Shown piece by piece: positions 6,513-63,668 of a stretch of 64,000 nt of DNA. Source of the stretch: a bacterium (GTDB lineage Bacteria > Patescibacteriota > Minisyncoccia > Phycocordibacterales > UBA9973); the NCBI GenBank assembly GCA_037132055.1, contig JBAXPX010000001.1, positions 5,424-69,423 of the forward strand, read 5' to 3'. A program made the translations under genes and the position numbers. The notes beneath the pieces were generated by a model. The model did not search any database and had not been told where the DNA came from. It saw nothing but the letters and a program-made list of their open reading frames with translations. How positions within the stretch are numbered: the first letter of the stretch is position 1; each line of letters begins with the position of its first letter.

Positions 6513-7010
6513 ATGATACTTACTACACATGCTGTAACCGGAGCAACATTGGCCACATTGTTTCCAACTCATCCGATCATTGGTTTTGCTGTCGGTTTTT
6601 CTAGCCATTTTCTTTTAGACGCTATCCCCCATTGGGATTATTCTCTTAGAAGCATGAAAGGTGACGACAAAAATCCCATGAATACAGACATGATCATAAA
6701 CAAGGATTTTTTAAAGGACTTGTTGAAAATCGGAGCTGATGGGGTTTTAGGATTATTGTTTTCTTGTGTTTTACTTGGCATTATCTTTCATAACTCTTTT
6801 TTTATAATTCTATTGGGTGCCATGGCTGGGATGATTCCAGATGCATTACAGTTTTTTTATTTTAAATGGAAACACGAACCGTTATTGAGTTTACAACGTT
6901 TTCATATATGGGTTCACCCAAAAATTAACCTACACGATAGACCGGTTGTTGGTGTTTTATCACAAGTAGTACTTATTTGTTTTGTTGTTTTTATCCTATT
7001 TGTTTCTTAA
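6513..7010 (+). CDS. Inner-membrane metal-dependent hydrolase-like protein (DUF457/YdjM-like)
   Basis: N-terminal MILTTHAVTGATL…HFLLDAIPHWDY pattern and several predicted TM helices. Confidence 0.4.
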   Translation: MILTTHAVTGATLATLFPTHPIIGFAVGFSSHFLLDAIPHWDYSLRSMKGDDKNPMNTDMIINKDFLKDLLKIGADGVLGLLFSCVLLGIIFHNSFFIILLGAMAGMIPDALQFFYFKWKHEPLLSLQRFHIWVHPKINLHDRPVVGVLSQVVLICFVVFILFVS

Positions 7011-9688: not shown

Positions 9689-10777
9689 TTAAACAGTAGT
9701 TTTTAATTTTTGGTCTCTTTTAAATCGTGCTATAGCAAGGTCAATCAATTTATCTAAGAGTTTCGGTAAGGAAAGTCCAGATGCTTCCCACATTTTTGGA
9801 TACATACTTATCGCTGTAAAACCAGGTAATGTATTTATTTCATTCACGATAATTTTATTATTTTTTGTCACAAAAAAATCTACTCGTCCCATACCTTCAC
9901 AACTTAAAGTTTTAAAAACTTTTACAGCCATCATTTGTATTTCTTTTATTGTCTTTTTGGGTAATTCTGCGGGTATCTTGCATACTGATTTATCGTCTAT
10001 ATATTTTGAATTATAAGAATAAAAATCAGCATTTGAAATTATTTCTCCAGGCAGAGATGCCAAAGGATTTTCATTTCCCAAAACAGAGCATTCTATTTCC
10101 CTACCATTGATATTTTCTTCAATGACAACTTTATTATCATACTGAAATGCATCTTTTAACCCAGCATAAAATTCTTTTTCGTTTTTTACTTTATGAATAC
10201 CAACCGAAGATCCAAGATTGGCAGGTTTAATAAATAAAGGTAAACCTAATTTTTTTGAAATTTCTTTAAATGAAATCTTCGCTGTTTTTTCCACTGCTAT
10301 AAATTTACCAATCGGAATACCAGCTTCTCGAAAAAGTCTTTTCATCACGTCTTTATCCATTCCGACAGCCGAACCAAGCACGCTCGGACCAATAAAAGGT
10401 ATTCCAGCCAATTTTAAAAATCCCTGCATACTACCATCCTCACCAAATGGACCATGCAATACTGGGAAAATAACGTCTAGTTTTTCACAGTTTTTCAAAT
10501 CACGCATACTCACTAAAGCACCAGATCCCTCGGTAGTAAGAATTACTTCATTATTTGATTTATTGAGTTTGATTAGTTTTGGGTCATTATTATTTAATAA
10601 ATAATTTGAAATATTACCCAATAACCACTTGCCATTTTTATCTATACCAATCGGTATAATTTCATATTTCTTCTTATCTAAAAAATTAATAACATTTTTA
10701 GCAGACTGCAAAGAAACTTCGTGCTCTGCAGATTTACCACCGAAAAGTACGCCTATTTTTAGCTTCTTTTTTGCCAT
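9689..10777 (-). CDS. ddl: D-alanine--D-alanine ligase
   Basis: KIGVLFGGKSAEHEVSLQSA at the N-terminus and an ATP-grasp C-terminus. Confidence 0.85.
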   Translation of the reverse strand: MAKKKLKIGVLFGGKSAEHEVSLQSAKNVINFLDKKKYEIIPIGIDKNGKWLLGNISNYLLNNNDPKLIKLNKSNNEVILTTEGSGALVSMRDLKNCEKLDVIFPVLHGPFGEDGSMQGFLKLAGIPFIGPSVLGSAVGMDKDVMKRLFREAGIPIGKFIAVEKTAKISFKEISKKLGLPLFIKPANLGSSVGIHKVKNEKEFYAGLKDAFQYDNKVVIEENINGREIECSVLGNENPLASLPGEIISNADFYSYNSKYIDDKSVCKIPAELPKKTIKEIQMMAVKVFKTLSCEGMGRVDFFVTKNNKIIVNEINTLPGFTAISMYPKMWEASGLSLPKLLDKLIDLAIARFKRDQKLKTTV

Positions 10778-16074: not shown

Positions 16075-16626
16075 TTAACCTAAAACCTCTTTTTCTTTTT
16101 TTGAAAAAGTATTCTCCAAGTTTTTATTAGCTTCATCTACTATTTTTTGTAATTCGTCTTTCGCTCGGATTTTTTCGTCTTCTGTCATTTTCCCATCACG
16201 TTCTTGTTTTTGAATCTCTTCCCAGATTTGTCCTCGCTCCCTACGAAGAGTAATACGTGCTTCTTCTAATTTCTCTTTTATAACTTTTACGAGTTTTTGT
16301 CTTGTTTCTGTTGTAAGTTGAGGAAAAATAACACGTATACCAGAATCATCAGTAGCTACAGAAAGCCCCAAATCTGCTACTGTGATAGCTTTTTCAATTG
16401 GTTTTATGTGATTCTTGTCCCAAGGAGCAACTCGTAGTGTTTTTGTGTCTTCTATTGATATAGAGGCAACATTTTTGATTGGTTGCATCGCTCCATATGA
16501 CTCAACAGAAACACCATCCAACACCATAGGAGATGCACGTCCAGTGGAAAGCTGGCTGTATTCTTTGCCTAAAAAATCATCTATCTTTTTAAGACCTACT
16601 TTAAAGTTTGAAAAATTATATTGCAT
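16075..16626 (-). CDS. frr: Ribosome recycling factor
   Basis: Full-length RRF homology. The start was moved to the internal Met (MQYNFSNF…) to give the typical length of about 184 aa. Confidence 0.8.
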   Translation of the reverse strand: MQYNFSNFKVGLKKIDDFLGKEYSQLSTGRASPMVLDGVSVESYGAMQPIKNVASISIEDTKTLRVAPWDKNHIKPIEKAITVADLGLSVATDDSGIRVIFPQLTTETRQKLVKVIKEKLEEARITLRRERGQIWEEIQKQERDGKMTEDEKIRAKDELQKIVDEANKNLENTFSKKEKEVLG

Positions 16627-21256: not shown

Positions 21257-21946
21257 TGATACTAAAACCGTAAACTCCCCTTTTTGTTTTACTGGATTTT
21301 TTGTGAGATAGTCTAAAAGACTAGCTGGGCTATCTGTTTTAAACTCTTCATAAATTTTTGTTATCTCTCGAGCAATACAAACTTTTTTATCAGGGCAAAA
21401 TTTATTTAGAGATTCTAATGTTTTTAAAATCCTATGTGGCGATTCATAAAAAATCATCGTTCTCTTTGCCTCTGCTATTTCTTTAAATAAAGTTTCTCTG
21501 CCTTTTTTATGCGGTAAAAATCCTAAAAATGTAAATTCATGAGTTGTAAGACCTGAGGCAGAAAGTGCGGCTATTATAGCAGTCGCACCTGGAATCGGGA
21601 TAATATTAACTTCTTGTGAAGGACCGTCCTTCACAAGATATTTTTCTCGTATTTTTGAAATGAGAATCGCACCCGGATCGGAAATTGTCGGTGTTCCAGC
21701 ATCAGATACAAGTGCTAGATTTTTTCCTTCTTTTAGTAATTCAAAAATTTTATCTGTTTTAGATATTTTGGATTGTGCATGATAACTCATTGTCGGCTTA
21801 TTTATGGAATATTTATCAAGTAACCTTTTAGTTATTCTAGTGTCCTCACAAAGTATCAAATCCACACTTTTAAGCGTCTCCACTGCCCTATATGTAATAT
21901 CACCCATATTGCCTATCGGCGTCGCCACAACGTAAAATTTAGACAT
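21254..21946 (-). CDS. rsmI: 16S rRNA 2'-O-methyltransferase RsmI
   Basis: FYVVATPIGNMGDITYRAVETLKSVDLILCEDTR. The CDS carries a 25-bp in-frame palindromic insertion at 21613-21637. Confidence 0.8.
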   Translation of the reverse strand: MSKFYVVATPIGNMGDITYRAVETLKSVDLILCEDTRITKRLLDKYSINKPTMSYHAQSKISKTDKIFELLKEGKNLALVSDAGTPTISDPGAILISKIREKYLVKDGPSQEVNIIPIPGATAIIAALSASGLTTHEFTFLGFLPHKKGRETLFKEIAEAKRTMIFYESPHRILKTLESLNKFCPDKKVCIAREITKIYEEFKTDSPASLLDYLTKNPVKQKGEFTVLVS

Positions 21947-26897: not shown

Positions 26898-27418
26898 TAT
26901 TTTACGGGTGAATTTAACATTGCTTTGATAATATCCTCTCCCTTACCTTTTTCTACGTAACCTTCGATAACCTTACGAACACCATCAGAAACTAAGACTG
27001 CAGCATCTTTGCGAACTTGTTCGTCTGCGTTCTTTTTTTCTTTTTCTGCATCAAGTTTTGCCTGCTTAATGATTTCTTCTTTTTCAGAAATAGCTTTATC
27101 TTTTGCTTCTTTTACTATCTCCTTGCCATCTGCTTGTGAAGTAGAAATTATTTGCTTTGCACTTTCTTTTCCTTCTCTGATGATTTCTTCTTTTTTGATG
27201 TTTGCATTTTGAACTTCGAGTTTTGCTTTTTCTGCATTATCTAGCCCATCAGTTATTTCCTTTGTTCTATCTTTCATTAATTTACTAAGTGGTTTTGCCG
27301 CCAACCAATAAATCAACGCAAAAACAAGCCCAAAGTTTACAATTTGTGCAATCATCAACTTCCAGTCTATATGAAATGTTGTTATTAATTCTTGCATGAT
27401 TTTTAATTCCAATTTCAT
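26897..27418 (-). CDS. atpF: ATP synthase b subunit
   Basis: A single N-terminal TM helix followed by a long charged helix. Confidence 0.75.
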   Translation of the reverse strand: MKLELKIMQELITTFHIDWKLMIAQIVNFGLVFALIYWLAAKPLSKLMKDRTKEITDGLDNAEKAKLEVQNANIKKEEIIREGKESAKQIISTSQADGKEIVKEAKDKAISEKEEIIKQAKLDAEKEKKNADEQVRKDAAVLVSDGVRKVIEGYVEKGKGEDIIKAMLNSPVK

Positions 27419-27419
27419 T

Positions 27420-27498
27420 TAAAATTAAAAATTTCAAGAGTCGTGGGTCCCCTTGTCCTTATGACTCCAAGGGCGAAGGCTCAGAAATTTTTGAATTT
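27420..27498. repeat. Copy 1 of a ~70-80 nt palindromic intergenic repeat (between atpF and atpE)
   Basis: Near-identical to 37212-37276 (core AAGAGTCGTGGRTCCCCTTGTCCTTATGACTCCAAGGGCGAAGGCTCAGAAATTTTTGA) and flanked by an AT-rich inverted repeat. Confidence 0.8.
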
Positions 27499-27509
27499 TA
27501 AAAGAAATA

Positions 27510-29871: not shown

Positions 29872-30147
29872 TTATTCTCTTTTTGATATTGCGTTTATCG
29901 CGCTAAAAATCAGCGCGAATATGAACACAGTGACCCCTGTGGTCACTAGGGTTGGGTTCACCAACTCCATTTTGGATATATTTACTCCTCCTCCAATAAG
30001 GAGGATAGAACACCCAAATGTGATCAAAATCCAGCCCCATGAGTGTTTTTGGGGATTGGGGTTTTTGTCATGTTTAAGGGCAATCAACACCCCTAAAATT
30101 AATAACCCTATCCCTAGGGCTACAACAACAGTACTCATGTTTATCAT
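29872..30147 (-). CDS. Small three-helix membrane protein
   Basis: Clean hydrophobic helices; the terminator hairpin at 29853-29879 follows its stop on the minus strand. Confidence 0.35.
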   Translation of the reverse strand: MINMSTVVVALGIGLLILGVLIALKHDKNPNPQKHSWGWILITFGCSILLIGGGVNISKMELVNPTLVTTGVTVFIFALIFSAINAISKRE

Positions 30148-30244
30148 ATTTTATTGTTTTTAAGGTTTCCGCAAAGAGTATATCACCTTTTACCTCATTT
30201 GTCAAGGTAGCCGTTATAATCTGAGCAAGGCAAGGCCTTGCTCA

Positions 30245-31231
30245 TTATTCTTCGTCCTCGTTCCCTGTTTCACCAGATTCCAATGAATCAATAATTTTTC
30301 CCATATTACCTTCCATGATAGTTGGAATATTTGACCAAGATTTTTTAATACGATGATCAGTAATCCGATCCTGAGGAAAATTATAAGTACGAATTTTTTC
30401 AGATCTATCACCAGTGCCAATCTGATCTTTTCTAACTCCTGCATATTTTTTTGCCTCTTCTTCTTCTTTTAATTGTTGAATCTTGGCAGTTAAAATCATT
30501 AGAGCTTTTTCACGATTTGCAAGTTGACTTCGCTCATTTGTGGAGCGCACATCAAGCCCTGTCGGTTTATGAATCAAGCGTACAGCTGTCTCAACTTTAT
30601 TTACATTCTGCCCTCCTTTCCCGCCAGAACGTGAATATTCCATTTCTAAATCAGCAGGATTGATCTCAAATAAAACTTTTTTCCTAATTGGCAGAATAGC
30701 CACAGAAGCAGTAGATGTATGCACTCGTCCATTCTTCTCGGTTGCGGGAACTCTCTGTACTCGATGCACACCCGTCTCATGCCGCATTTTTTTATAAACA
30801 TCCTTACCTTTTATTTCAAAACTCGCTTCTTTATAACCATTCAAATCACTTTTTGATTCATAGTTTGTTTTCCAACTCCATCCCTCTATTTCAGAATATT
30901 TTTCATACATATGCGCTAGCTCCCAAGCAAAAAGTGAAGCTTCATCTCCACCAGCACCCGCTCTAACTTCGAGTACTATTTCATTTGGTGATTCTTCTTC
31001 CTCTACATCTTTCTTTAGAATATCTTCTATTTGTTTTTCTGTATTTTCTCTTTGTTCTTGAATTGATTTTAATTCTCCATCAACCATTTCTTTCAAAGAA
31101 ACATCTTTGGTAAGAATTTCTCTAATTTCTTTTTCTTCTTTATCTAGACGCTCCAAAATACCAGCTAAGTAGCTTGTTTTGTGATTTTTCTTTAGTTCAT
31201 CGAGATTTAAAGTCATATTGTTATTATACAT
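30245..31231 (-). CDS. prfA: Peptide chain release factor 1
   Basis: GGQ motif [16 protein letters not shown] and the RF1-type tripeptide PAT ([14 protein letters not shown]). The start was placed at MYNNNMT, which has AGGAGG 9 nt upstream; the track's longer ORF would start inside the hairpin array. Confidence 0.75.
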
Positions 31232-31335
31232 TAAAACTCCCCTCCTTGATGAGGAGGGGCTGGGGGTGGTGATTCTTTTAATTACCACCTCGTCTTGATA
31301 AATCAAGACACTCCTCCTTGGTAAGGAGGAGAACC

Positions 31336-31554
31336 TTATTTCTTAGCTTTTACAGATGCAGCTCGACGTTTATTGAAACGTTCTACTCGTCCAGCAGTGT
31401 CCATTATTTTTTCATTACCAGTATAAAAAGGATGACATTGGCTGCAAATTTCCATTTTGATTTCTGACATTGTTGAACCAACTTCAAAAACTGCTCCACA
31501 AGCGCAAGTGGCTTTTGTTTTAGTGTTAAATTTTGGATGTATATCTTTTTTCAT
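31336..31554 (-). CDS. rpmE: 50S ribosomal protein L31
   Basis: MKKDIHPKF…[12 protein letters not shown]…[10 protein letters not shown]. Confidence 0.85.
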
Positions 31555-34648: not shown

Positions 34649-36079
34649 TTATTTTAACATTTCCTTTAATAATTTAATAACTATTTGTGGATTAGCACTA
34701 CCACTGCTCTCTTTTATAACTTTTCCAACAATAGACATTATTGCATTTTCTTTCCCAGCTTTATAAGTAGCCACCACTTCAGGATTTTCTTTAATTGTTT
34801 TTTCTACAATCTCTCTTATCGTTCCTTCATCGTTTTTCTGTAATAAATTTTTTTCTGTGGCGATTTTAAATGGGGATTCATCATTTATCACTATCATTGC
34901 TAAAATATCTTTCGCTCCGCGAGAAGAAATTTTATTCTCAAAAAGTAAGTTTATGAGTTCTGCAAAATTTTCTGGCTTTGGCATTTTTGCATCTTTGTTG
35001 TTTTTCTTTAAACCAAGGAAATCTGACGTAATATAATTTGAAGCAATTTTTACTTTTTCAGTAGTTGATAATATCTTCGAAATATCTTCAAACCATTCTC
35101 CAAGCTCTAGGTCATTTATATAACTTTCTATGTCTTCATCTTTTATACAAAAATCTTTTTTATATCTTTCCCGCTTTGCCAAAGGAAGCTCTGGTAATTC
35201 TTTTTTCATCTTTTCTAAATCAAATGCTTCGTGAAGCTTCATCTTTGGTAAATCTGGATCCGGAAAATATCTATAATCATGACTGGATTCCTTCTTTCTT
35301 TGAGAAAATGTTTTTTGTTTTACTTCATCCCAACCACGAGTTTCTTGAACTATTTCATCACCCTTACCACTTTCCAACAACTCTATCATTCTGTCTACTT
35401 CATATTTAATAGCTTTTTCTACACTCCTAAAAGAATTAAGATTTTTTACTTCAACTTTTGTTCCCAATTTATTTTTATCTTCTGACACAGAAATATTTGC
35501 CTCTACTCGCATTTCTCCTTTTTCCATATTTACATCTGACACCCCTAAATACCAAAGAATCAGTTGAAGTTCTTTTGCAAAATTAGATGATCCTTTTGCT
35601 GCGGTAATATCATCTACAAAGGTATTAGGCTCTGTCACAAGCTCCATTAATGGCACTCCAGCTCGATTAAAGTCAATTAAGGAGAAGTCCCCCTTGTCGT
35701 GTTTATTATTTGCTGTATCTTCTTCTAAATGCACACGAGTTATATCAAAATCTACCAAACGTCCTCCTGAAACTATTGGATATTTATATTGAGAAATCTG
35801 ATATCCTTTCGGAATATCTGGATAAAAATAATTTTTTCGATCAAATTCTGTAAAATCAGCAATACTACCACCAACAGCCAGACCAACTTTTACAACACTT
35901 TCAATCGCTTTTTTGTTTGGTACGGGTAAAGTACCAGGATGTGCCATACAAACTGGACAAATATTTATATTTGGCATATCTACGTCAGGATCATTCCTAC
36001 AAGCACAAAACATTTTGGTTTGCGTTTTCAATTCTGCATGTATTTCAAGTCCAATTGTTGGATAATATTTTTTTGGCAT
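34649..36079 (-). CDS. gatB: Asp-tRNA(Asn)/Glu-tRNA(Gln) amidotransferase subunit B
   Basis: PTIGLEIHAELKTQTKMFCAC at the N-terminus and a YqeY-like C-terminus. Confidence 0.85.
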   Translation of the reverse strand: MPKKYYPTIGLEIHAELKTQTKMFCACRNDPDVDMPNINICPVCMAHPGTLPVPNKKAIESVVKVGLAVGGSIADFTEFDRKNYFYPDIPKGYQISQYKYPIVSGGRLVDFDITRVHLEEDTANNKHDKGDFSLIDFNRAGVPLMELVTEPNTFVDDITAAKGSSNFAKELQLILWYLGVSDVNMEKGEMRVEANISVSEDKNKLGTKVEVKNLNSFRSVEKAIKYEVDRMIELLESGKGDEIVQETRGWDEVKQKTFSQRKKESSHDYRYFPDPDLPKMKLHEAFDLEKMKKELPELPLAKRERYKKDFCIKDEDIESYINDLELGEWFEDISKILSTTEKVKIASNYITSDFLGLKKNNKDAKMPKPENFAELINLLFENKISSRGAKDILAMIVINDESPFKIATEKNLLQKNDEGTIREIVEKTIKENPEVVATYKAGKENAIMSIVGKVIKESSGSANPQIVIKLLKEMLK

Positions 36080-37126: not shown

Positions 37127-37191
37127 AATTATTATATATTAGCACGAATTTAAAAATTCTCTTAAAAACTTTATCCTCGGTTTTTTTATCT

Positions 37192-37287
37192 TAAAATAGG
37201 AAAATAAAAATTTTAAGAGTCGTGGATCCCCTTGTCCTTATGACTCCAAGGGCGAAGGCTCAGAAATTTTTGATTTTCCTATTTTTA
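37192..37287. repeat. Copy 2 of the palindromic intergenic repeat, with a 14-bp AT-rich terminal inverted repeat (TAAAATAGGAAAAT / ATTTTCCTATTTTA)
   Basis: The core is near-identical to 27432-27497. It supplies the last ~14 codons and the stop of the upstream gene. Confidence 0.8.
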
Positions 37288-38206
37288 ATGCTAACTTAGC
37301 TAGTTTTATCGCTCCTTCTTTTGATTTTGCCACAGTAAGAAAAAGACCTTTATGACAAAAAACAGCATCTTTCACTCCTGTAACTTTTTGTAATTCTTCA
37401 TCTCTAAGCCCTGCCCATTTTTTGGGAAAATCTTTCTTATTCTTGAAAGTTTTAGTATTTTCTCTTATTGCCCTTATTCCCCACAAATTATCACTCCCTC
37501 TTGGATAAATCACAAAGAAAGATTCTTTAAATTTATTCAAAATATCTTCATCGTGAAAATGTTCATTTAAAACTAAAATCCTTTTATCCTTTGTTTTTTT
37601 ATAAATTAAATTTACTTTTTTTTCAGAAATAACTGCGTCTTCAATATGAATTATTTCCCTTGATAATATTTCTTTTGCTATCCTTACGGACTCTAAAAAC
37701 ATTTCTTCATTATTTGCTTTTTTTTCTCGTAGGGCTGGACGCATGGCAAAGAAAAAATGTTCAATAAAATAAGGCGAAATTTTATGTTTATTTTCCACTA
37801 AATCAAAACCATTATCAAAAGCGTCAATGGGAGCTACAAGATGATCGTCGATTATTTCCATAACTTCTTTCGTATTGCAAAGTTCTTTCCCAAATTTTTT
37901 CCAAACTAAACCAAAAGAAGAATATTCTATACCGTTTTCTCTTATACCTCCTCCGCCTTTTTGATGATGGTCAAAACGGTTTTTCTTCGGATCATAGATG
38001 CCTCCGACGTCAAAAACATAATCACCCCTTTTTACAAGCTCTTCATCACGAGTGCGAATTACCTTAAACTTATTCCCTTTTTTCTCAAGCATTAGAGATA
38101 AAGTCGCACAAGCAAAAATATCATCTGCGTGAAATGACCCATTGTGAGTTACTAAAAGTTTTTTATTTTTATTTTGTTTCATCGTAAAATTCTTCAAAAA
38201 TTTCAT
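37238..38206 (-). CDS. MYG1/UPF0160-family metal-dependent hydrolase
   Basis: LLVTHNGSFHADDIFACATL at the N-terminus; the C-terminal tail is encoded by the repeat. Confidence 0.55.
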   Translation of the reverse strand: MKFLKNFTMKQNKNKKLLVTHNGSFHADDIFACATLSLMLEKKGNKFKVIRTRDEELVKRGDYVFDVGGIYDPKKNRFDHHQKGGGGIRENGIEYSSFGLVWKKFGKELCNTKEVMEIIDDHLVAPIDAFDNGFDLVENKHKISPYFIEHFFFAMRPALREKKANNEEMFLESVRIAKEILSREIIHIEDAVISEKKVNLIYKKTKDKRILVLNEHFHDEDILNKFKESFFVIYPRGSDNLWGIRAIRENTKTFKNKKDFPKKWAGLRDEELQKVTGVKDAVFCHKGLFLTVAKSKEGAIKLAKLALKIGKSKISEPSPLES

Positions 38207-38777: not shown

Positions 38778-39227
38778 TTAAAATAAGACATCTACGGCCT
38801 CTTTTACAGTATTACCATCTGCTTTACCTTTTAAATCTTTCATCAAAGCTGACATTAATTTGCCTTTTTCTTTTGGATCATTTATTCCAAGCTCCTCTTT
38901 TTTTGCTTTCGCTATTTTCCCAACTTCTTCAAGATCCATCATCTTCGGTAAATATTTTTCTAAAATTATAAGTTGTGCTTCTTCTTCTTTTACTAAATCC
39001 ATCCTATTCCCTTTTTTGAATTGTTCTATGGAGTCTTTCCTTTGTTTGGCAAGACGAGTTATCACAGAAATTGCTTCTTCATCGGAAAGCATTTCGTTCG
39101 GCTTTTTGCCTTTTGCTACTAATTCGTTGGTAAAAGCAGAAACCATTCCGCGATAAGTATCAAGTGCTGTTTGGTCTTTAGCCATCATTGCTTCTTTTAT
39201 TTTTCCTTTTATTTGTTCGTGTAACAT
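38778..39227 (-). CDS. GatB/YqeY-domain protein
   Basis: Full-length YqeY-like helical domain. Confidence 0.7.
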   Translation of the reverse strand: MLHEQIKGKIKEAMMAKDQTALDTYRGMVSAFTNELVAKGKKPNEMLSDEEAISVITRLAKQRKDSIEQFKKGNRMDLVKEEEAQLIILEKYLPKMMDLEEVGKIAKAKKEELGINDPKEKGKLMSALMKDLKGKADGNTVKEAVDVLF

Positions 39228-56398: not shown

Positions 56399-57382
56399 AT
56401 GATATATGACCTTATAATTATTGGCGGAGGGCCGGCTGGATCTGCTGCTGCTGTGTACGCCGCTCGCAAACGCTTAAATACTTTATTTATTACCGATGAA
56501 TTCGGAGGGCAATCTATCGTGTCTGAAAAAATATATAACTGGATTGGCACAACTGAAATCGCTGGGTCAAAACTTGCGGAAGATCTCAAAAATCATGTAC
56601 TAGCTAATAAAGGAGAAAAGCTTACTATAAAAGAAGGTTTAACCGTAGTAGCCATTGTGAAGATTGTGAAGGACGGTCCTTCACAAAATTCACAAAACTG
56701 TGAAGGACCGTCCTTCACAAGCACAGGTATTTTTTCAATAAAAACTGAGTCGGGAGAAGAGTTTGAAACAAAGACTGTTTTAATAACTACAGGAAGTAAG
56801 CGTAGAAAATTAGAAATAAAAAACGCTGACAAATTGGAACATAAAGGACTCACCTACTGTGCTACTTGTGATGGACCAATGTTTTCTGGCGCTGATGTTG
56901 TAGTTGTCGGCGGGGGCAACGCTGCTTTTGAAAGCGCTTCTCAACTTCTCGCATATTGTAATTCCGTAACAATTTTAAATAGAAGTGATTCATTTCGAGC
57001 TGATCAAATAACGATAGACAAACTTTCAAAAAATCCAAAACTCAAAATTATAAAAAATATTGAACTTCTGGAAGTTTTGGGTGATAAATTTGTAGAAGGA
57101 ATAAAATATAAAGATATAAATACAAACAAAGAAAACACTCTCAATATCACTGGGATTTTCGTAGAAATAGGCCAAATTCCAAATACTGAATTCGCAAAAG
57201 ACCTTATTTCCCTTGATAAAATAGGCAAAATTAAAATAGACCCATGGACTGGAAAAACAGAAACTTCAGGCATTTGGGCAGCTGGTGATTGTACTAATAT
57301 TCTCTATCATCAAAACAACATCGCCGCTGGCGATGCTGTAAAAGCTTTGGAGGATATTTATTTAACAATACACACTAAATAA
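56399..57382 (+). CDS. trxB: Thioredoxin reductase
   Basis: IIGGGPAGSAAAVYAARK and the redox CATCDG. It contains about 60 bp of in-frame palindromic insert (56664-56720). Confidence 0.8.
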   Translation: MIYDLIIIGGGPAGSAAAVYAARKRLNTLFITDEFGGQSIVSEKIYNWIGTTEIAGSKLAEDLKNHVLANKGEKLTIKEGLTVVAIVKIVKDGPSQNSQNCEGPSFTSTGIFSIKTESGEEFETKTVLITTGSKRRKLEIKNADKLEHKGLTYCATCDGPMFSGADVVVVGGGNAAFESASQLLAYCNSVTILNRSDSFRADQITIDKLSKNPKLKIIKNIELLEVLGDKFVEGIKYKDINTNKENTLNITGIFVEIGQIPNTEFAKDLISLDKIGKIKIDPWTGKTETSGIWAAGDCTNILYHQNNIAAGDAVKALEDIYLTIHTK

Positions 57383-57813: not shown

Positions 57814-58518
57814 ATGAACAAAAAAATTATTGTTGCTTTGGATGTAGACACACTCGAAAAGGCTAAACCCCTCATCGAAATGCTTGCACCACATGTAATG
57901 TGTTTCAAAGTAGGACTCGAACTTCTCACTGCAGAAGGAGCACCAAAGGTTGTCAACTGCATTCATTCAATGGGTGGCTCGGTCTTTTTTGACGGAAAAT
58001 TCAATGACATTCCAAACACAGTTGCCAATGCTGTAAAAGCCCTTGCAAAATTTGAAGTTGCAATGTTCAATATCCATGCGTCATCTGGCGTCGAGGCGAT
58101 GATGGCTGCAGTTGCGAACAGAGGGGTTTCCCTCGTTCTTGCTGTTACGGTTTTGACTTCGCTCGAAGAAAACAATGCTCACCTGATCTTTGGAGCACCG
58201 AGCAAAGCCAAGGTTTTGGAATTTGCAAGATATGCAAAAATTGCAGGTTGTGAAGGAATTATTTGCTCACCGCAAGAACTCGAGATTATCGGTAAACAAA
58301 AAGAGCTTAAAGGTCTCTTGAAAATCACTCCCGGCGTTCGTCCCCTGTGGGCTTCTGTTGGTGACCAAAAAAGAGTCATGACTCCAGGAGAAGCAATAAC
58401 AGCTGGAGCATACGCCATTGTAGTAGGCCGGCCCATCACAGACCCTTCGAAAGAAATCGGAACACCTGTGGATGCGATAAAAAGAATCCAGGAAGAAATC
58501 GATTCAGTACAACAATAA
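57814..58518 (+). CDS. pyrF: Orotidine 5'-phosphate decarboxylase
   Basis: IIVALDVDTLEKAKPLIEML…FKVGLEL, preceded by the strong SD AAAGGAGG. Confidence 0.65.
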   Translation: MNKKIIVALDVDTLEKAKPLIEMLAPHVMCFKVGLELLTAEGAPKVVNCIHSMGGSVFFDGKFNDIPNTVANAVKALAKFEVAMFNIHASSGVEAMMAAVANRGVSLVLAVTVLTSLEENNAHLIFGAPSKAKVLEFARYAKIAGCEGIICSPQELEIIGKQKELKGLLKITPGVRPLWASVGDQKRVMTPGEAITAGAYAIVVGRPITDPSKEIGTPVDAIKRIQEEIDSVQQ

Positions 58519-59367: not shown

Positions 59368-60063
59368 TTAAAATTTGAGGAGTGTTTTGTTTATGTATTT
59401 TAAAACTATTTTCTCATATAAAATATAATAACCAAAAATTCCCATTGCTACTCCTCCTAAAAACCCCACAACAGTATGAAATTTTAATACGAATGTACCA
59501 ATCGCTCCAAAGAAAGCTAATGGCAAAAATACCCAGAATAGTGAACGCCAATGCTTATAGAGGAATATTCCCATGAAAACTAATGGTGCAACATGAAGGC
59601 TTGGAAAATCACCGAGAGGAGTACTTTGTGTATATAGACCTTGTAATGCTTGAAACATTCCTTCATTTATAAATAGATGCGAGTTGGGTCCATATGAAGT
59701 AAGCATAACTCCCGAAGCTGTGGTTGGAAAAATTATATAAATGACGTAAGTAATTAAATATACAAATACTACAGAGAAATAAAAAGATATAACCTGTATC
59801 GCAGTAATTCTTTTATTAAAAGCGTACAATATTCCTGAAAGAGGAACGTAAATAAGACAAGCCAAATACGGCCACATGATATAGATGTTCACAGGTGTCC
59901 ACGCGTCAATAAATGTTTTAAGAGAAACAGTATTCATCAGTCTTCCTCCCAATTCACAAATAGCTTGATACTGTATCATTACAAAGTACAAGAGAAAGTA
60001 AAGCGGAACAAATAATAAAAGCTTAAACCAAACACTATGATTAATTTTTTCCGAAATTTTCAT
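59368..60063 (-). CDS. Polytopic membrane protein (possibly PAP2-like)
   Basis: About 6 TM helices and a FPSLH motif. An extended -10 element TGATATAAT lies only a few nt upstream, suggesting a leaderless or near-leaderless transcript. Confidence 0.35.
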   Translation of the reverse strand: MKISEKINHSVWFKLLLFVPLYFLLYFVMIQYQAICELGGRLMNTVSLKTFIDAWTPVNIYIMWPYLACLIYVPLSGILYAFNKRITAIQVISFYFSVVFVYLITYVIYIIFPTTASGVMLTSYGPNSHLFINEGMFQALQGLYTQSTPLGDFPSLHVAPLVFMGIFLYKHWRSLFWVFLPLAFFGAIGTFVLKFHTVVGFLGGVAMGIFGYYILYEKIVLKYINKTLLKF

Positions 60064-60094: not shown

Positions 60095-60155
60095 TTGCGG
60101 TGTGTATTGGACAAAGTTCGAATTTATTTCGAACTTTGTCCAATACACACCGCAA
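60095..60155. repeat. 61-bp perfect palindrome (28-bp arms, 5-nt centre) abutting the left inverted repeat of recombinase unit 1
   Basis: TTGCGGTGTGTATTGGACAAAGTTCGAA-tttat-TTCGAACTTTGTCCAATACACACCGCAA. Confidence 0.8.
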
Positions 60156-61790
60156 CATTTGGAAATTGGGTTCCCCGCGAAAAAATGCGTCGGGGCGAAG
60201 CACCGACGACTGGGCTGAATTCCCGCCAAACCCCGCCCCCGCAAGGATTTCCCACACGGCGGAGCGCTCTTCGTTACCAATACAAAATATATGAATCAAA
60301 CCAAAAAATTTTTTATATATACTCGCAAGTCGACGGACGACAAAGACCATCAGATTAGAAGTATTTCTGATCAGCTTTCCGAATTGAAAGAATTAGCGTT
60401 GAAAGAACGATTAGAAATAGTTGATATCTTTGTCGAGAAGCAGTCTGCCAAAATACCAGGCCGTCCGATATTTAACGAAATGCTAGAACGTATGGAGAAA
60501 GGCGAAGCATCTGGTATTTTGGCGTGGCATCCTGATAGACTTGCGAGAAACTCGGTAGATGGAGGAAAAGTCATCTACCTCGTTGATACCGAAGTTATAA
60601 AAGATTTAAAATTTTCGACTTTTTGGTTTGATCCGACACCGCAAGGCAAATTTATGCTTTCAATCGCTTTTTCCCAATCCAAATATTATGTGGATAATTT
60701 ATCAGAGAATATTAAACGCGGACAAAGAAACAAAGTGAAGGAAGGAATATGGCCTCAAAATGCTCCGCTTGGTTATGTAAATAAAGAAGGTGGTGGAATT
60801 GAGCCAAATATTATTCTTGCTCCACTTATTAAAAAAGCATTTGAGGCCTATGCAACAGGCAACTTCACTTTGCGACAAGTCCGCGATAAATTTAACGCAC
60901 TTGGTTTAACAGGAAAAAGCGATGGAGACCTTTCGGTGTCTAATTATCAAAAACTTTTAAGAAATCCGATTTTTACGGGAATGATGAGATATAACGGCGA
61001 AATTTACGAAGGCAAACACGAACCGATTATTTCAAAGAAACTTTTTGATTCCGTTGCCGAAGTGATGAGTAAAAAATCTAAATCGCATAGCAAAGGATTG
61101 AAGCCGTATATTTATCGGGGATTTTTCCGTTGTGACGAATGTGGCTGTTTTATCACTACCGAACAACAAAAAGGTCATAACTATTTACGATGTACGAAAC
61201 GGAAAAATCCTTGCAATCAGAAATATACACGAGAAGAACTCATCACTTCCCAAATACAAGAAGAAATCAAAAAAGTTTCTTTGCCACTCGATTGGTTAGA
61301 ATGGATGATTGGTGAAAATAAAAAAGACCAATCACCCGAAGTAGAATCGAGTACGCTTTTTGTTGATAATGTAAAATCCGACATTTCTCTTTTAGAATCT
61401 AAAATTGAGAAGCTGATGACGATGTATTTAGAAAATGCCCTAACACTCGACGAATATCGCGATATGAAAAATAAGCTGATGAACGAAAAACAGCTTCTCA
61501 AAGAGAAATTGTCGGATTTAGAACAAAAAGCGAATAATCGGTTCGAACTTACCGAAAAGTTTTTGAAATTCAATATGGAATTGGTAAACGATAGAACAAA
61601 TGAAGAAAATATTCATTTGTTCAAAAAAGTCGGTTCGAACTTTAGAATAAAAGATCGAACACTCCTTTTTGAGCGCTCCGCCGTGTGGGAAATCCTTGCG
61701 GGGGCGGGGTTTGGCGGGAATTCAGCCCAGTCGTCGGTGCTTCGCCCCGACGCATTTTTTCGCGGGGAACCCAATTTCCAAATGTTGCGG
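60150..61790 (+). mobile_element. Recombinase unit 1: a large serine recombinase gene bounded by 120-bp perfect inverted repeats (IR-L 60150-60269, IR-R 61671-61790). IR-R abuts the 3' end of tRNA-Ser.
   Basis: The two 120-bp segments are exact reverse complements of each other. The recombinase ORF starts 21 nt after IR-L and reads into IR-R. Confidence 0.6.
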
Positions 61791-61814
61791 AGGGTACAGG
61801 ATTTGAACCTGTGA
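60291..61814 (+). CDS. Large serine recombinase (resolvase N-terminal domain, recombinase domain, zinc ribbon); its C-terminal ~48 codons are encoded by IR-R
   Basis: YTRKSTDDKD (catalytic Ser), WHPDRLARN, the recombinase-domain stretch LLRNPIFTGMMRYNGEIYEGKHEPIIS, and the zinc ribbon CDECGCF…YLRCTKRK. Confidence 0.75.
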   Translation: MNQTKKFFIYTRKSTDDKDHQIRSISDQLSELKELALKERLEIVDIFVEKQSAKIPGRPIFNEMLERMEKGEASGILAWHPDRLARNSVDGGKVIYLVDTEVIKDLKFSTFWFDPTPQGKFMLSIAFSQSKYYVDNLSENIKRGQRNKVKEGIWPQNAPLGYVNKEGGGIEPNIILAPLIKKAFEAYATGNFTLRQVRDKFNALGLTGKSDGDLSVSNYQKLLRNPIFTGMMRYNGEIYEGKHEPIISKKLFDSVAEVMSKKSKSHSKGLKPYIYRGFFRCDECGCFITTEQQKGHNYLRCTKRKNPCNQKYTREELITSQIQEEIKKVSLPLDWLEWMIGENKKDQSPEVESSTLFVDNVKSDISLLESKIEKLMTMYLENALTLDEYRDMKNKLMNEKQLLKEKLSDLEQKANNRFELTEKFLKFNMELVNDRTNEENIHLFKKVGSNFRIKDRTLLFERSAVWEILAGAGFGGNSAQSSVLRPDAFFRGEPNFQMLRRVQDLNL

Positions 61815-61874
61815 TCCACTTTCGCGGATTCCGGTTTTCGAAACCGGCGCCTTCAACCTCTCAGCCAACCCTCC
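61788..61874 (-). tRNA. tRNA-Ser (anticodon CGA), long variable arm
   Basis: Reverse complement GGAGGGTTGGCTGAGAGGTTGAAGGCGCCGGTTTCGAAAACCGGAATCCGCGAAAGTGGATCACAGGTTCAAATCCTGTACCCTCCG. The D-arm matches the type-II Ser tRNA pattern. Confidence 0.75.
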
Positions 61875-61936: not shown

Positions 61937-62008
61937 GGCCCTATCGTCTAACGGTTAGGACATCGGCTTTTCAAGCCGGTAATCCGGGTTCGATTCCCGG
62001 TAGGGTCA
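61937..62008 (+). tRNA. tRNA-Glu (anticodon UUC)
   Basis: GGCCCTATCGTCTAACGGTTAGGACATCGGCTTTTCAAGCCGGTAATCCGGGTTCGATTCCCGGTAGGGTCA. Confidence 0.75.
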
Positions 62009-63668
62009 CCTAAAGAGAGATTGTGGAAATTAGAAATATGGAGCGGGTTTTCAAAATGAAAACTCGCACTGGGTAGCCCGCTTCCGCCCTTTGCGGAAGC
62101 GACAAAATCCCAAATCTCGCCAGAATGCATATGAATTGTTTTGTCCTTGATTTCAGGGTTAGAGCCAATTTTTTGAAAAAATTGCTTCCATTCAATTTGA
62201 TTGTCAGTTTTTTCCAAATCAACGGCTTCTTTCAAGGACAAAACCAAAATCCGCAAGGGTTCGATCCAATACTTTCTCTGTTGTCCAAAATCTTTCAAAC
62301 TTTCCTCAATTCCAGCTTTTTGACGAAGTAAAATATCTTTTCGTTCCAAATATTGTGAGCGTTCAATATCTCCGTCTAAATATATAGAAACAAGTTTATC
62401 TAGTTTTTCTTTAATTTCGGAAAGTTCAGATTTTAGATTTTGGACAACATTTCCTTTTTCTGAAATTGATTCTTGTTCCCATTCGTCAATTTTCTTTTCC
62501 ATTTTTTCAATTTCAGAAAAAGGAATTGACGCTTTTTGAAGCGAAGTTTTGATTTGTTCGGAGAGTGTGGATTCTGAAAGATACGGCTGAGAGCAAAAAC
62601 CTTTCTTTTTTGTGCAACGATAATAAATATAACGAGTACCAAAACGATTGATAGAATATTGAGCCGTAATCATACTTCCACACTCGCCACATTTGGCAAA
62701 ACCGAGAAAATGAAATGGATGAGCGATTTTAGATTTTCTCGGTTTTTGCCGAGACTTCAAAACTTTCTGCACTGCTTCAAAAAGTGTCGGAGAAAGTATT
62801 GGTTCAAAGCTTCCATTGTGCCATTCGTTATGATGTTTGATAAATCCTAAATATGCACGATTGGTAAGTAATCGCACAATGCAAGCTTTGGCAAGTGGCT
62901 TTCCTATTTTTGTGACAAGTCCTAAATCCGCCAAATACTTCGCTAGTCCTTCAATAGTGTAAATATTTTTTGAATATTCTTCAAAAGCTCTTACTACAAT
63001 TTTTGAATATACAGGATGAGGTTCAATAGTTTTAGTTTTTAAGTTATTTATATATCCATACGGAGCTTTTGTCAGCCATTCCCCACGGCGAAGTTTTTGG
63101 CGGATTCCTCGTTTTACATTTTCAACCAAGTTGTCAGAAAAATATTTGGATTGTCCGAAAGCCACTTGCAACATGAATTTCCCTTGCGGAGTTGGTTCAA
63201 ACCAAAACTGCGGAAAGCGCAAAGAAACAATTTTGCCAGTATCAACAAGATAGATAACTTTTCCACCATCAACACTATTTCTCGCTAATCGGTCAGGATG
63301 CCATGCTAATATTCCATTTGCTTCACCTTTTTCTATCTTATCTATCATTCTGGCAAATTGTTTTCGTCCTGTGGTCTTTGCGCTTTTCGATTCGGTAAAA
63401 GTTTCTTTTACTGAAATATTTTCTCTGCGAGCATATTCTTTCAATTCAAAAAGTTGAGCTTCAATACTCATTACTTGTTTATCGTCATCTTCCGTTGATT
63501 TTCTCGCGTAGAGAAAATATTTGTTTTGATTTGAGGAATTCATATGCATTCTGGCGAGATTTGGGATTTTGTCGCTTCCGCAAAGGGCGGAAGCGGGCTA
63601 CCCAGTGCGAGTTTTCATTTTGAAAACCCGCTCCATATTTCTAATTTCCACAATCTCTCTTTAGGTGA
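62006..63668 (-). mobile_element. Recombinase unit 2: a paralogous large serine recombinase gene bounded by ~132-bp perfect inverted repeats (IR-L 62006-62137, IR-R 63537-63668). IR-L begins within the last 3 nt of tRNA-Glu(UUC).
   Basis: Exact reverse-complement identity over about 130 bp. The repeat covers the recombinase start codon (ATGCATATG) at one end and the tRNA 3' end (TCACC) at the other. Confidence 0.6.
62138..63549 (-). CDS. Large serine recombinase, paralog of the 60291-61814 gene. The track's ORF extends to 61948 across IR-L and the tRNA; the true stop is uncertain.
   Basis: YARKSTEDDDKQ (catalytic Ser), GILAWHPDRLARNSVDGGKVIYLVDT (identical to the stretch in unit 1), recombinase domain, and the zinc ribbon CGECGSMITAQ…YYRCTKKK. 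Confidence 0.7.

Follow-up and report, generated by a model that had tools for sequence, protein, structure and literature searches.

Does the stretch of DNA between rpmE and prfA in a Patescibacteria genome regulate the gene that follows it, or does it belong to the gene before it? In the 64-kb, AT-rich stretch of contig JBAXPX010000001.1 that we analysed (hereafter the window; G+C 34%), rpmE, which encodes ribosomal protein L31, is followed by prfA, which encodes release factor 1 (RF1), and the spacer between the two is filled by four perfect hairpins, the last of which buries a sequence resembling a Shine-Dalgarno (SD) motif. A sequence-only reading of the locus had taken this array for a translational attenuator of prfA. 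We favour a different answer, to which we assign a probability of roughly 0.55, namely that positions 31239-31331 hold one copy of a palindromic spacer cassette (W) that acts as a 3' terminator and stabiliser of rpmE, and that prfA is expressed separately, as a leaderless mRNA, from a TATAAT box. Judged by RF1 and L31 similarity, the window belongs to a Candidatus Nomurabacteria/Paceibacterota-like member of the Patescibacteria. The mRNA strand of the spacer is the minus strand, positions are those of the whole stretch, and the features of the junction are as follows.

31336-31554, minus strand: rpmE, ribosomal protein L31, 72 aa (from the list of open reading frames, ORFs; Pfam Ribosomal_L31 on identical public contigs).
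31338-31336, minus strand: rpmE stop codon TAA, followed by GGTT and then by hairpin H1.
31331-31323 paired with 31319-31311, minus strand: H1, CTCCTCCTT-ACC-AAGGAGGAG, 9 bp with a 3-nt loop, beginning 4 nt past the rpmE stop and flagged by the terminator scan.
31309-31303 paired with 31298-31292, minus strand: H2, GTCTTGA-TTTA-TCAAGAC, 7 bp with a TTTA loop.
31289-31284 paired with 31270-31265, minus strand: H3, GGTGGT-N13-ACCACC, with a small inner stem in its 13-nt loop.
31259-31252 paired with 31246-31239, minus strand: H4, CCCCTCCT-CATCA-AGGAGGGG, 8 bp (6 of them G-C) with a 5-nt loop, preceded by CCCAG.
31232-31238, minus strand: short U-tract AGTTTTA directly 3' of H4 (terminator scan).
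31229-31231, minus strand: upstream in-frame ATG, giving a 328-aa product; picked by the sequence-only reading and by most gene callers.
31223-31228, minus strand: TATAAT -10 box, 6 nt before ATG 31216; proposed prfA promoter.
30245-31216, minus strand: prfA, RF1, 323 aa from the start conserved among orthologues (ORF list and orthologue N-termini; Pfam PCRF and RF-1 on identical public contigs).
30222-30244, minus strand: prfA terminator hairpin, TGAGCAAGGC-AAG-GCCTTGCTCA (terminator scan, sequence).

The array begins 4 nt past the rpmE stop and ends 7 nt short of ATG 31231, and the minimum free energy (MFE) structure given by RNAfold consists of exactly these four. The spacer folds at -49.4 kcal/mol, compared with -29.5 +/- 3.9 kcal/mol for dinucleotide shuffles (z = -5.2; 0/200 shuffles as good), a second spacer segment that we tested gave z = -5.8, and among 6390 sliding 100-nt segments (mean -16.6, sd 5.9) the spacer ranks second in stability. 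The pattern CCTCC-N(4-12)-GGAGG occurs at 3 sites in the 64 kb, where 0.05 matches are expected, an excess of about 80-fold. The sequence-only reading was thus right about four hairpins on the minus strand, which go beyond chance, and right that H1 and H4 are variants of one motif; we find that they form the 5' and 3' terminal modules of the W element. Its dimensions needed revision, since 7 bp and a 7-nt loop were conservative for H1 (9 bp and 3 nt were found) and an 8-bp H2 with a 2-nt loop is sterically impossible, the stem being 7 bp closed by TTTA.

That reading went on to propose that rpmE and prfA are co-transcribed, that RF1 is translated from ATG 31231, and that its only SD, the H4 3' arm, is locked in H4, so that attenuation or coupling keeps RF1 far below L31. 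We regard this as unlikely, while noting what commends it: the H4 3' arm is indeed SD-like, with AGGAGG ending 9 nt and GGAGGGG 7 nt before an in-frame ATG, the 328-aa ORF is the one chosen by most gene callers, and strong SDs are used at some internal operon genes of the window (AAGGAGG before 57814 and 58534). Against it stand the N-termini of orthologues. Comparison of the 120 best RF1 homologues indicated that 112 start M-x-[LF]-[ND]-L-[DE]-E-L-K-K, which aligns with ATG 31216 and not with ATG 31231. The other 8 (P0002, P0006, P0007, P0010, P0011, P0041, P0061, and P0110) have longer N-termini, among them MYNNN, MCYVVTCQ, MGILVTI, and MEFFCYNIP, whose 5-10 extra residues are mutually unrelated and not conserved. 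At least three of these eight extensions (MYNNN, FFCYNIP, and FCYTIH) are translated -10-like boxes, FFCYNIP being encoded by TTTTTTTGTTATAATATACCA, and the 'YNN' codons of the longer window ORF are the TATAAT box itself. The NCBI annotation of an identical genome likewise uses the 323-aa RF1 start. ATG 31231 is therefore probably not the main prfA start, and the N-terminal RF1 extensions look like a systematic annotation artefact, in which most gene callers extend RF1 by five codons that appear in reality to be its -10 box. As to the buried SD, it does lie where the sequence-only reading placed it, with AGGAGG 9 nt before ATG 31231, and it is the only SD-like sequence near prfA; the start codon that it was held to serve is what has probably moved, to 31216, a displacement that the sequence-only reading had itself named as counting against it.

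How, then, might prfA be expressed from ATG 31216? On the minus strand the order 3' of H4 is AGTTTTA, ATG 31231, TATAAT 31228-31223, AACAAT, and ATG 31216, which places the TATAAT at the modal leaderless spacing before the conserved start. A -10 box about 6-7 nt before the ATG drives leaderless mRNAs in Actinobacteria, Deinococcus, and archaea. We find the same layout to be enriched at gene starts across the window: TAnAhT occurs 4-9 nt before the first ATG of 21/57 window genes, with a modal gap of 6, compared to 2.4% of control ATGs, and a TGn-extended box occurs at 12/57 genes compared to 0.1% of controls, an SD-like 4-mer being present at the first ATG of only about 5/57. Among 160 loci of relatives, collected from genome and metagenome scans (labelled with L numbers below) and nearly universal in their rpmE-prfA synteny, a -10-like box recurs ahead of prfA: counting the window, 19 loci (17 distinct spacers) have it at a gap of exactly 6 nt from the ATG, and about 14 more at a gap of 7-10 nt. 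Taken together, the orthologue starts, the rarity of SDs, and the box-to-ATG spacing suggest that prfA is expressed mainly from a leaderless transcript starting at 31216 and that it probably needs no SD. The likeness to the leaderless promoters of the groups named above consists of the TATAAT-6 nt-ATG arrangement at prfA and its enrichment at window gene starts; the difference is that for Patescibacteria the layout is a prediction from sequence. Literature searches that bore on the subject returned no paper describing a leaderless -10 layout in Patescibacteria, where leaderless starts seem to dominate, and the RF1 example offers a practical warning for annotation in this group.

Within the window, TGnTAnAAT stands 6-7 nt before the ATG of, for example, the ORFs at 665-1651, 6513-7010, 9689-10777, 16075-16626, 34649-36079, 38778-39227, and 56399-57382, a layout that suggests leaderless mRNAs. 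SD-like motifs are found mostly at internal operon genes (43350, 57814, and 58534), those at 57814 and 58534 being AAGGAGG.

To what does the array belong, if prfA has a promoter behind it? Searches with BLAST and nhmmer defined four families of spacer element, which we call A, A', B, and W, the last being the window type. Besides the window, only L002 (to which L082 is identical) and L083 carry W at the rpmE-prfA junction; a fourth copy lies inverted in the atpE-atpF spacer of L008 and shares 82% identity with the rpmE-prfA copy of L002 across 95 nt. In nhmmer searches W also aligns with the reverse complement of itself (E 1e-10 to 1e-12). H3 is common to W-family copies (GGTGGA..TCCACC, GGAGGT..ACCTC), and H2 is particular to the window copy, being absent from L002, L083, and L008. 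In the closest relatives by RF1 identity, the same site holds cassettes that are unrelated to W and carry no SD, or no cassette: A in L170 (89%), B in L171 (88%), A' in L173 (87%), and a plain hairpin in L175 (87%). Pairing like that of the window is kept only in L002, its duplicate L082, and L083, so the expectation that relatives would conserve a single structure in this spacer was borne out at these few loci only. At some 20 loci the rpmE stop and the prfA start are adjacent or overlapping, as TAAATG or TAATG (for example L008, L018, L019, L022, L034, L038, L084-L086, and L092-L096), so that some relatives couple rpmE and prfA tightly, and others place a terminator and a promoter between them. 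Distant relatives have a spacer consisting of a simple hairpin, a T-run, a -10 box, and the ATG, and closer relatives a palindromic element of 90-130 nt with a long closing stem, a 5' A-run, a 3' T-run, and a conserved core. The cassette types are dispersed over the neighbour-joining tree of RF1. These comparisons indicate that the array is not a prfA-specific device.

The other families show how such elements are distributed. Family A occupies the rpmE-prfA spacer of L001, L007, L009, L011, L017, L020, L023, L032, L040, L090, and L170 (for example L170:2399-2494), and in the sampled DNA it is found only there, in one orientation throughout. Family B, a three-helix element found in both orientations, is present in L005, L010, L012, L015, L024, L025, L030, L171, and others, and at other sites (L055:4062-4176, L035:3125-3225, and L142:2485-2555). 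Inverted copies include A' in L037 and B in L033, L003, and L014. Copies of A' and B were likewise located upstream of rpmE, downstream of prfA, and, in other genomes, between atpE and atpF. An atpE-atpF spacer either is 12-14 nt long or hosts A', B, W, or another palindrome. The window itself contains two copies of A'.

27415-27498, minus strand: A' copy 1, in the atpE-atpF spacer.
37188-37283, minus strand: A' copy 2, following the MYG1/UPF0160 gene, with obg downstream; the loop of the element contains the stop codon (37240-37238) of the preceding ORF.

The two copies are about 95% identical, have a 65-nt conserved core (CTGAGCCTTCGCCCTTGGAGTCATAAGGACAAGGGGAYCCACGACTCTT), each within an AT-rich closing stem, and share a derived CTTG/CAAG pair that is found in none of the other genomes, which indicates intragenomic spread or homogenisation. 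A candidate A' pseudoknot (loop GAGUC with a 3' GACUC) was not conserved in L021 or L173 and was dropped.

We propose that the W cassette, a quasi-palindrome of about 100 nt that fills the rpmE-prfA spacer, works in the following way. H4 and its U-tract would terminate or attenuate rpmE transcription, and the hairpin cluster would block 3' exonucleases and so protect the 3' end of the L31 mRNA; termination and protection together would keep L31 mRNA abundant and insulate prfA, which would be transcribed mainly from TATAAT 31228-31223 into a leaderless mRNA whose first codon is ATG 31216. Only on rare read-through RNA would ATG 31231 and its buried SD come into play, and there H4 would keep initiation low. 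The hairpins, the kinship of the families, the conserved start, and the box-to-ATG spacing are observed; termination, stabilisation, leaderless transcription, and mobility are inferences. In support of termination, H4 with its T-run (tail AGTTTTAATG) matches the intrinsic-terminator consensus (a stem of 5 bp or more, a 3-8-nt loop, and a U-rich tract), and the region contains 15 terminator-like sites where 3.6 are expected. H4 resembles an intrinsic terminator in its G-C-rich 8-bp stem, 5-nt loop, T-run, and position downstream of a stop codon, and the closing stems of relatives often have a 5' A-run and a 3' T-run. The array differs in having four hairpins where one suffices, a short U-tract, and a 3' arm that is also SD-like, and the copies in L008 (atp operon) and L083 have no T-run. 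Loci with a T-run behind the last helix showed no tendency to have a -10 box as well (Fisher p = 0.38), a result that we do not use since the automatic calls of helix ends were unreliable.

A role for the array in setting L31 above RF1 is plausible from the gene order (the array sits between L31, a high-demand gene, and RF1, a low-demand gene), the terminator-like H4, the buried SD, and the W copies with a GGAGG-type arm. To this extent the idea of an attenuator or stability element put forward in the sequence-only reading stands, and what probably falls away is the start codon and the dependence of prfA on an SD; little is left of the proposal that prfA has a translational attenuator here.

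Other W copies offer the attenuator more than the window does. L002, L083, and L008 have no promoter box, and in each the element ends in a GGAGG-type arm 8-10 nt ahead of the next ATG. We computed partition functions with the mRNA masked to 10-20 nt past the rpmE stop, thereby mimicking a terminating ribosome. Under this mask the probability that the SD is unpaired rises from 0.13 to 0.73 for L008, and the SD opens partly for L083 and L002 (0.18-0.34), so that in these three, where the downstream gene is promoterless, W is plausibly a donor of a ribosome-opened SD. In the window copy, by contrast, the probability is 0.00 without a ribosome and 0.001-0.14 with one; H4 is predicted to be autonomous and locked, with a promoter behind it. 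Well-known precedents are E. coli atpHA and the phage MS2 coat-replicase junction, where intercistronic hairpins sequester an SD and translation is coupled. W resembles them in placing an SD in a stable intercistronic stem, in having a long-hairpin fold that joins stop and start codons, and in the opening of the L008 SD under the ribosome mask; it differs in that the window SD stays paired when masked and 22 nt, including a -10 box, separate H4 from the conserved start. We also considered a relay, in which the ribosome melts H1, the freed H1 3' arm takes the H4 5' arm, and the SD opens; it works for the L008 copy only, the window SD remaining paired.

The long hairpin just mentioned arises from the pairing of the two terminal modules. 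For the window copy, the four-hairpin fold (-46.7 kcal/mol) is nearly isoenergetic with a single long hairpin between the H1 and H4 regions (-45.2). In L083, L008 (on both strands), and L002, pairing of the 5' with the 3' module makes the MFE structure a single long hairpin, at -58, -58, and -42 kcal/mol for L083, L008, and L002, respectively, compared with -42, -43, and -37.5 for local hairpins only. The base of this long hairpin abuts the upstream stop and lies 6-8 nt before the downstream ATG, an arrangement with the stop and start codons at the base that speaks for coupling. Both folds are built into the design of W, since each terminal module is palindromic and the two modules are alike. 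When compared by eye, the module variants CUCCUCC/GGAGGAG, CCCCUCC/GGAGGGG, and CCUCUCC/GGAGAGG all retain the local palindrome, a pattern that hairpin-templated DNA repair could also give.

The near equivalence of two folds also bears on whether the array might be a dedicated riboregulator, for instance an RF1-sensing switch in which dwelling of the ribosome at the rpmE stop remodels H1-H4 and opens the SD, or a ligand or temperature sensor. H1 starts 4 nt past the stop codon and its 3' arm is able to pair with the H4 5' arm, as such a switch would have it. We nonetheless think a riboregulator very improbable: the masked partition function leaves the SD closed, the element is not conserved at the rpmE-prfA locus, the stems are perfect and G-C rich, unlike those of RNA thermometers, and no Rfam match was found. 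Sensing of RF1 through the stop codon was set aside, since rpmE ends here, as in most relatives, with TAA, a codon recognised by RF1 and RF2 alike, and TAG is not enriched. Searches of Rfam returned only tRNAs at the gathering score for the window, no match at E values up to 5 for 31200-31350, 27400-27500, or 37190-37290 on either strand, and only tRNAs for 20 related loci.

Could the array instead be selfish or neutral palindromic DNA, lodged by insertion between the terminator region of rpmE and the promoter of prfA and tolerated there with no role in expression? The fast turnover and patchy cassette types, the occurrence of both orientations, the near-perfect Watson-Crick stems with no strand asymmetry, and the sufficiency of TAAATG or a plain hairpin in many relatives are all compatible with such an origin. 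Three observations make it a rather improbable account. The junctions at which cassettes keep turning up, rpmE-prfA and atpE-atpF, are ones that step from high to low expression. In a strain with 96% identity over 2.6 kb the spacer is 100% identical, against an expectation of about 5 changes. Finally, A and B show many compensatory changes together with conserved unpaired bases: in A, compensatory changes affect 19/27 predicted pairs, and UGCGCCCUUC, GAGUAC, and GGGACCCUC are invariant and unpaired; in B, they affect 20/21 predicted pairs, with conserved junctions CUCGUGCUC and CGCAAG. A and B may therefore be more than terminators, and their covarying cores could be protein-binding or self-processing RNAs. 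For W, alignment of the four distinct copies with MAFFT gave too few sequences, structurally misaligned, to assess covariation, and the nine retrieved contigs with identical L31 give none because they are 96-100% identical to the window.

Least probable among the explanations that we weighed is a site acting at the level of DNA, such as a cruciform, a recombination site, or a palindrome bound by a protein, or else a gene for a small RNA transcribed in the antisense direction. It draws on the orientation-insensitivity of the family and on the folding of the plus strand, which is at least as good as that of the minus strand (-52.0 compared with -43.8 and -54.4 compared with -45.5 in two comparisons). 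Against it, we saw no antisense layout of promoter and terminator, no recombinase gene adjoins the site, and Rfam gave no match on either strand.

In their general character the cassettes recall the small dispersed palindromic intergenic repeats of bacteria, such as REP/BIME, ERIC, BOX, and Correia (NEMIS) elements, and such repeats are known to stabilise mRNA 3' ends, to attenuate, and to cause differential expression within operons. Shared with these are a non-coding and highly structured nature, a length of about 35-150 nt, an intergenic position that is often just past stop codons in or between operons, and occurrence in either orientation, at different loci and patchily between close relatives. 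Like REP or MITE elements, too, the cassettes have non-orthologous copies (W in L008) and terminal inverted repeats. They differ in that W and the others have no sequence similarity to the named families and only A' has 2 copies in 64 kb, in the homopyrimidine and homopurine arms of W (CCUCC/GGAGG), which are copies of the anti-SD and the SD, and in the apparent swapping of several unrelated cores at one and the same hairpin-flanked site. We found no support for placing them in any named repeat family. We also considered TIGR arrays, in which two alternating 8-12-nt repeats with 9-nt spacers form 5-15 units beside a tas gene encoding a Nop domain (PMC12045711). The window array was rejected as one of these: it has no 36-nt periodicity, its four hairpins are heterogeneous, and its neighbours are an SLT-domain protein, rpmE, and prfA. 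A literature search found no description of these spacer elements; among viral contigs, the A' core had no match and the pattern CYCCTCC..GGAGGRG had 67 scattered matches.

Several observations weigh against reading the array as a mobile cassette that terminates rpmE ahead of an independent prfA promoter. The U-tract after H4 is short (4 U). The TG at the prfA box directly abuts TATAAT, without the TGn spacing of the other promoters, and the in-frame ATG 31231 stands at an SD-appropriate spacing that we estimate would arise by chance only a few percent of the time. The W-bearing L002 and L083 lack a -10 box and have the ATG 8 nt past the GGAGG-type arm, so transcription there has to run through the element, which may provide the SD. 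Overall, the sense strand folds no better than the antisense (across elements, 36 vs 36, with no asymmetry; families A, A', and B fold slightly better in reverse), so selection at the RNA level is not demonstrated. As to mobility, no direct target-site duplication was seen, the flanks of both window A' copies being inverted repeats and those of W (GGTT/AGTT) uninformative; no RAYT or insertion-sequence partner was identified in a Pfam scan that covered only 8 window proteins; and a single W copy lies within the window, which does not show W to be multicopy in the genome.

Viewed as a group, W, A, A', and B would be interchangeable structured spacer elements of Nomurabacteria-like Patescibacteria, occupying the same few junctions and turning over fast. 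A bolder proposal, which we hold only tentatively and think unlikely, is that they form a system of portable structured 'stop-to-start' cassettes, hitherto undescribed, that insert or swap in hairpin-flanked intercistronic sites at junctions between high- and low-demand genes (L31-RF1, ATP synthase c-b) and set the expression ratio through termination, 3' stabilisation, or a ribosome-opened SD. Were the cassettes to tune L31:RF1 or ATP synthase c:b ratios in this manner, they would provide a compact regulatory device where regulators are few. These very small genomes still keep several fast-turnover families of structured palindromic spacers at a few junctions.

Other structured sequences lie elsewhere in the window. 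The most stable 100-nt segment (-54 kcal/mol) contains a perfect 28-bp inverted repeat with a 5-nt loop at 60095-60155, between genes ending at 60063 and starting at 60291. The third CCTCC..GGAGG hairpin, TCCTCCT-CCAATA-AGGAGGA at 29986-30005, falls inside a predicted small membrane-protein ORF (29872-30147, minus strand), in which it encodes LLIGGG, and may be either chance or what is left of a module like those of W. The minus strand encodes at 61948-63549 a large serine recombinase with Resolvase, Recombinase, and Zn_ribbon_recom domains, adjoining tRNA genes at 61788-61874 and 61937-62008 and bracketed by inverted segments of about 55 bp at 62047-62101 and 63573-63627 (GTTTTCA..TGAAAAC plus CGCTTCCGC..GCGGAAGCG); this region may be an integrative or invertible element, and nothing ties the recombinase to the spacer element. 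Finally, the palindrome TGTGAAGGAC(C/G)GTCCTTCACA is present in three copies, at 21612-21638 and 56664-56720, two of which form a 22-bp inverted pair at 56664-56720, and it may represent a further repeat family or an operator-like site.

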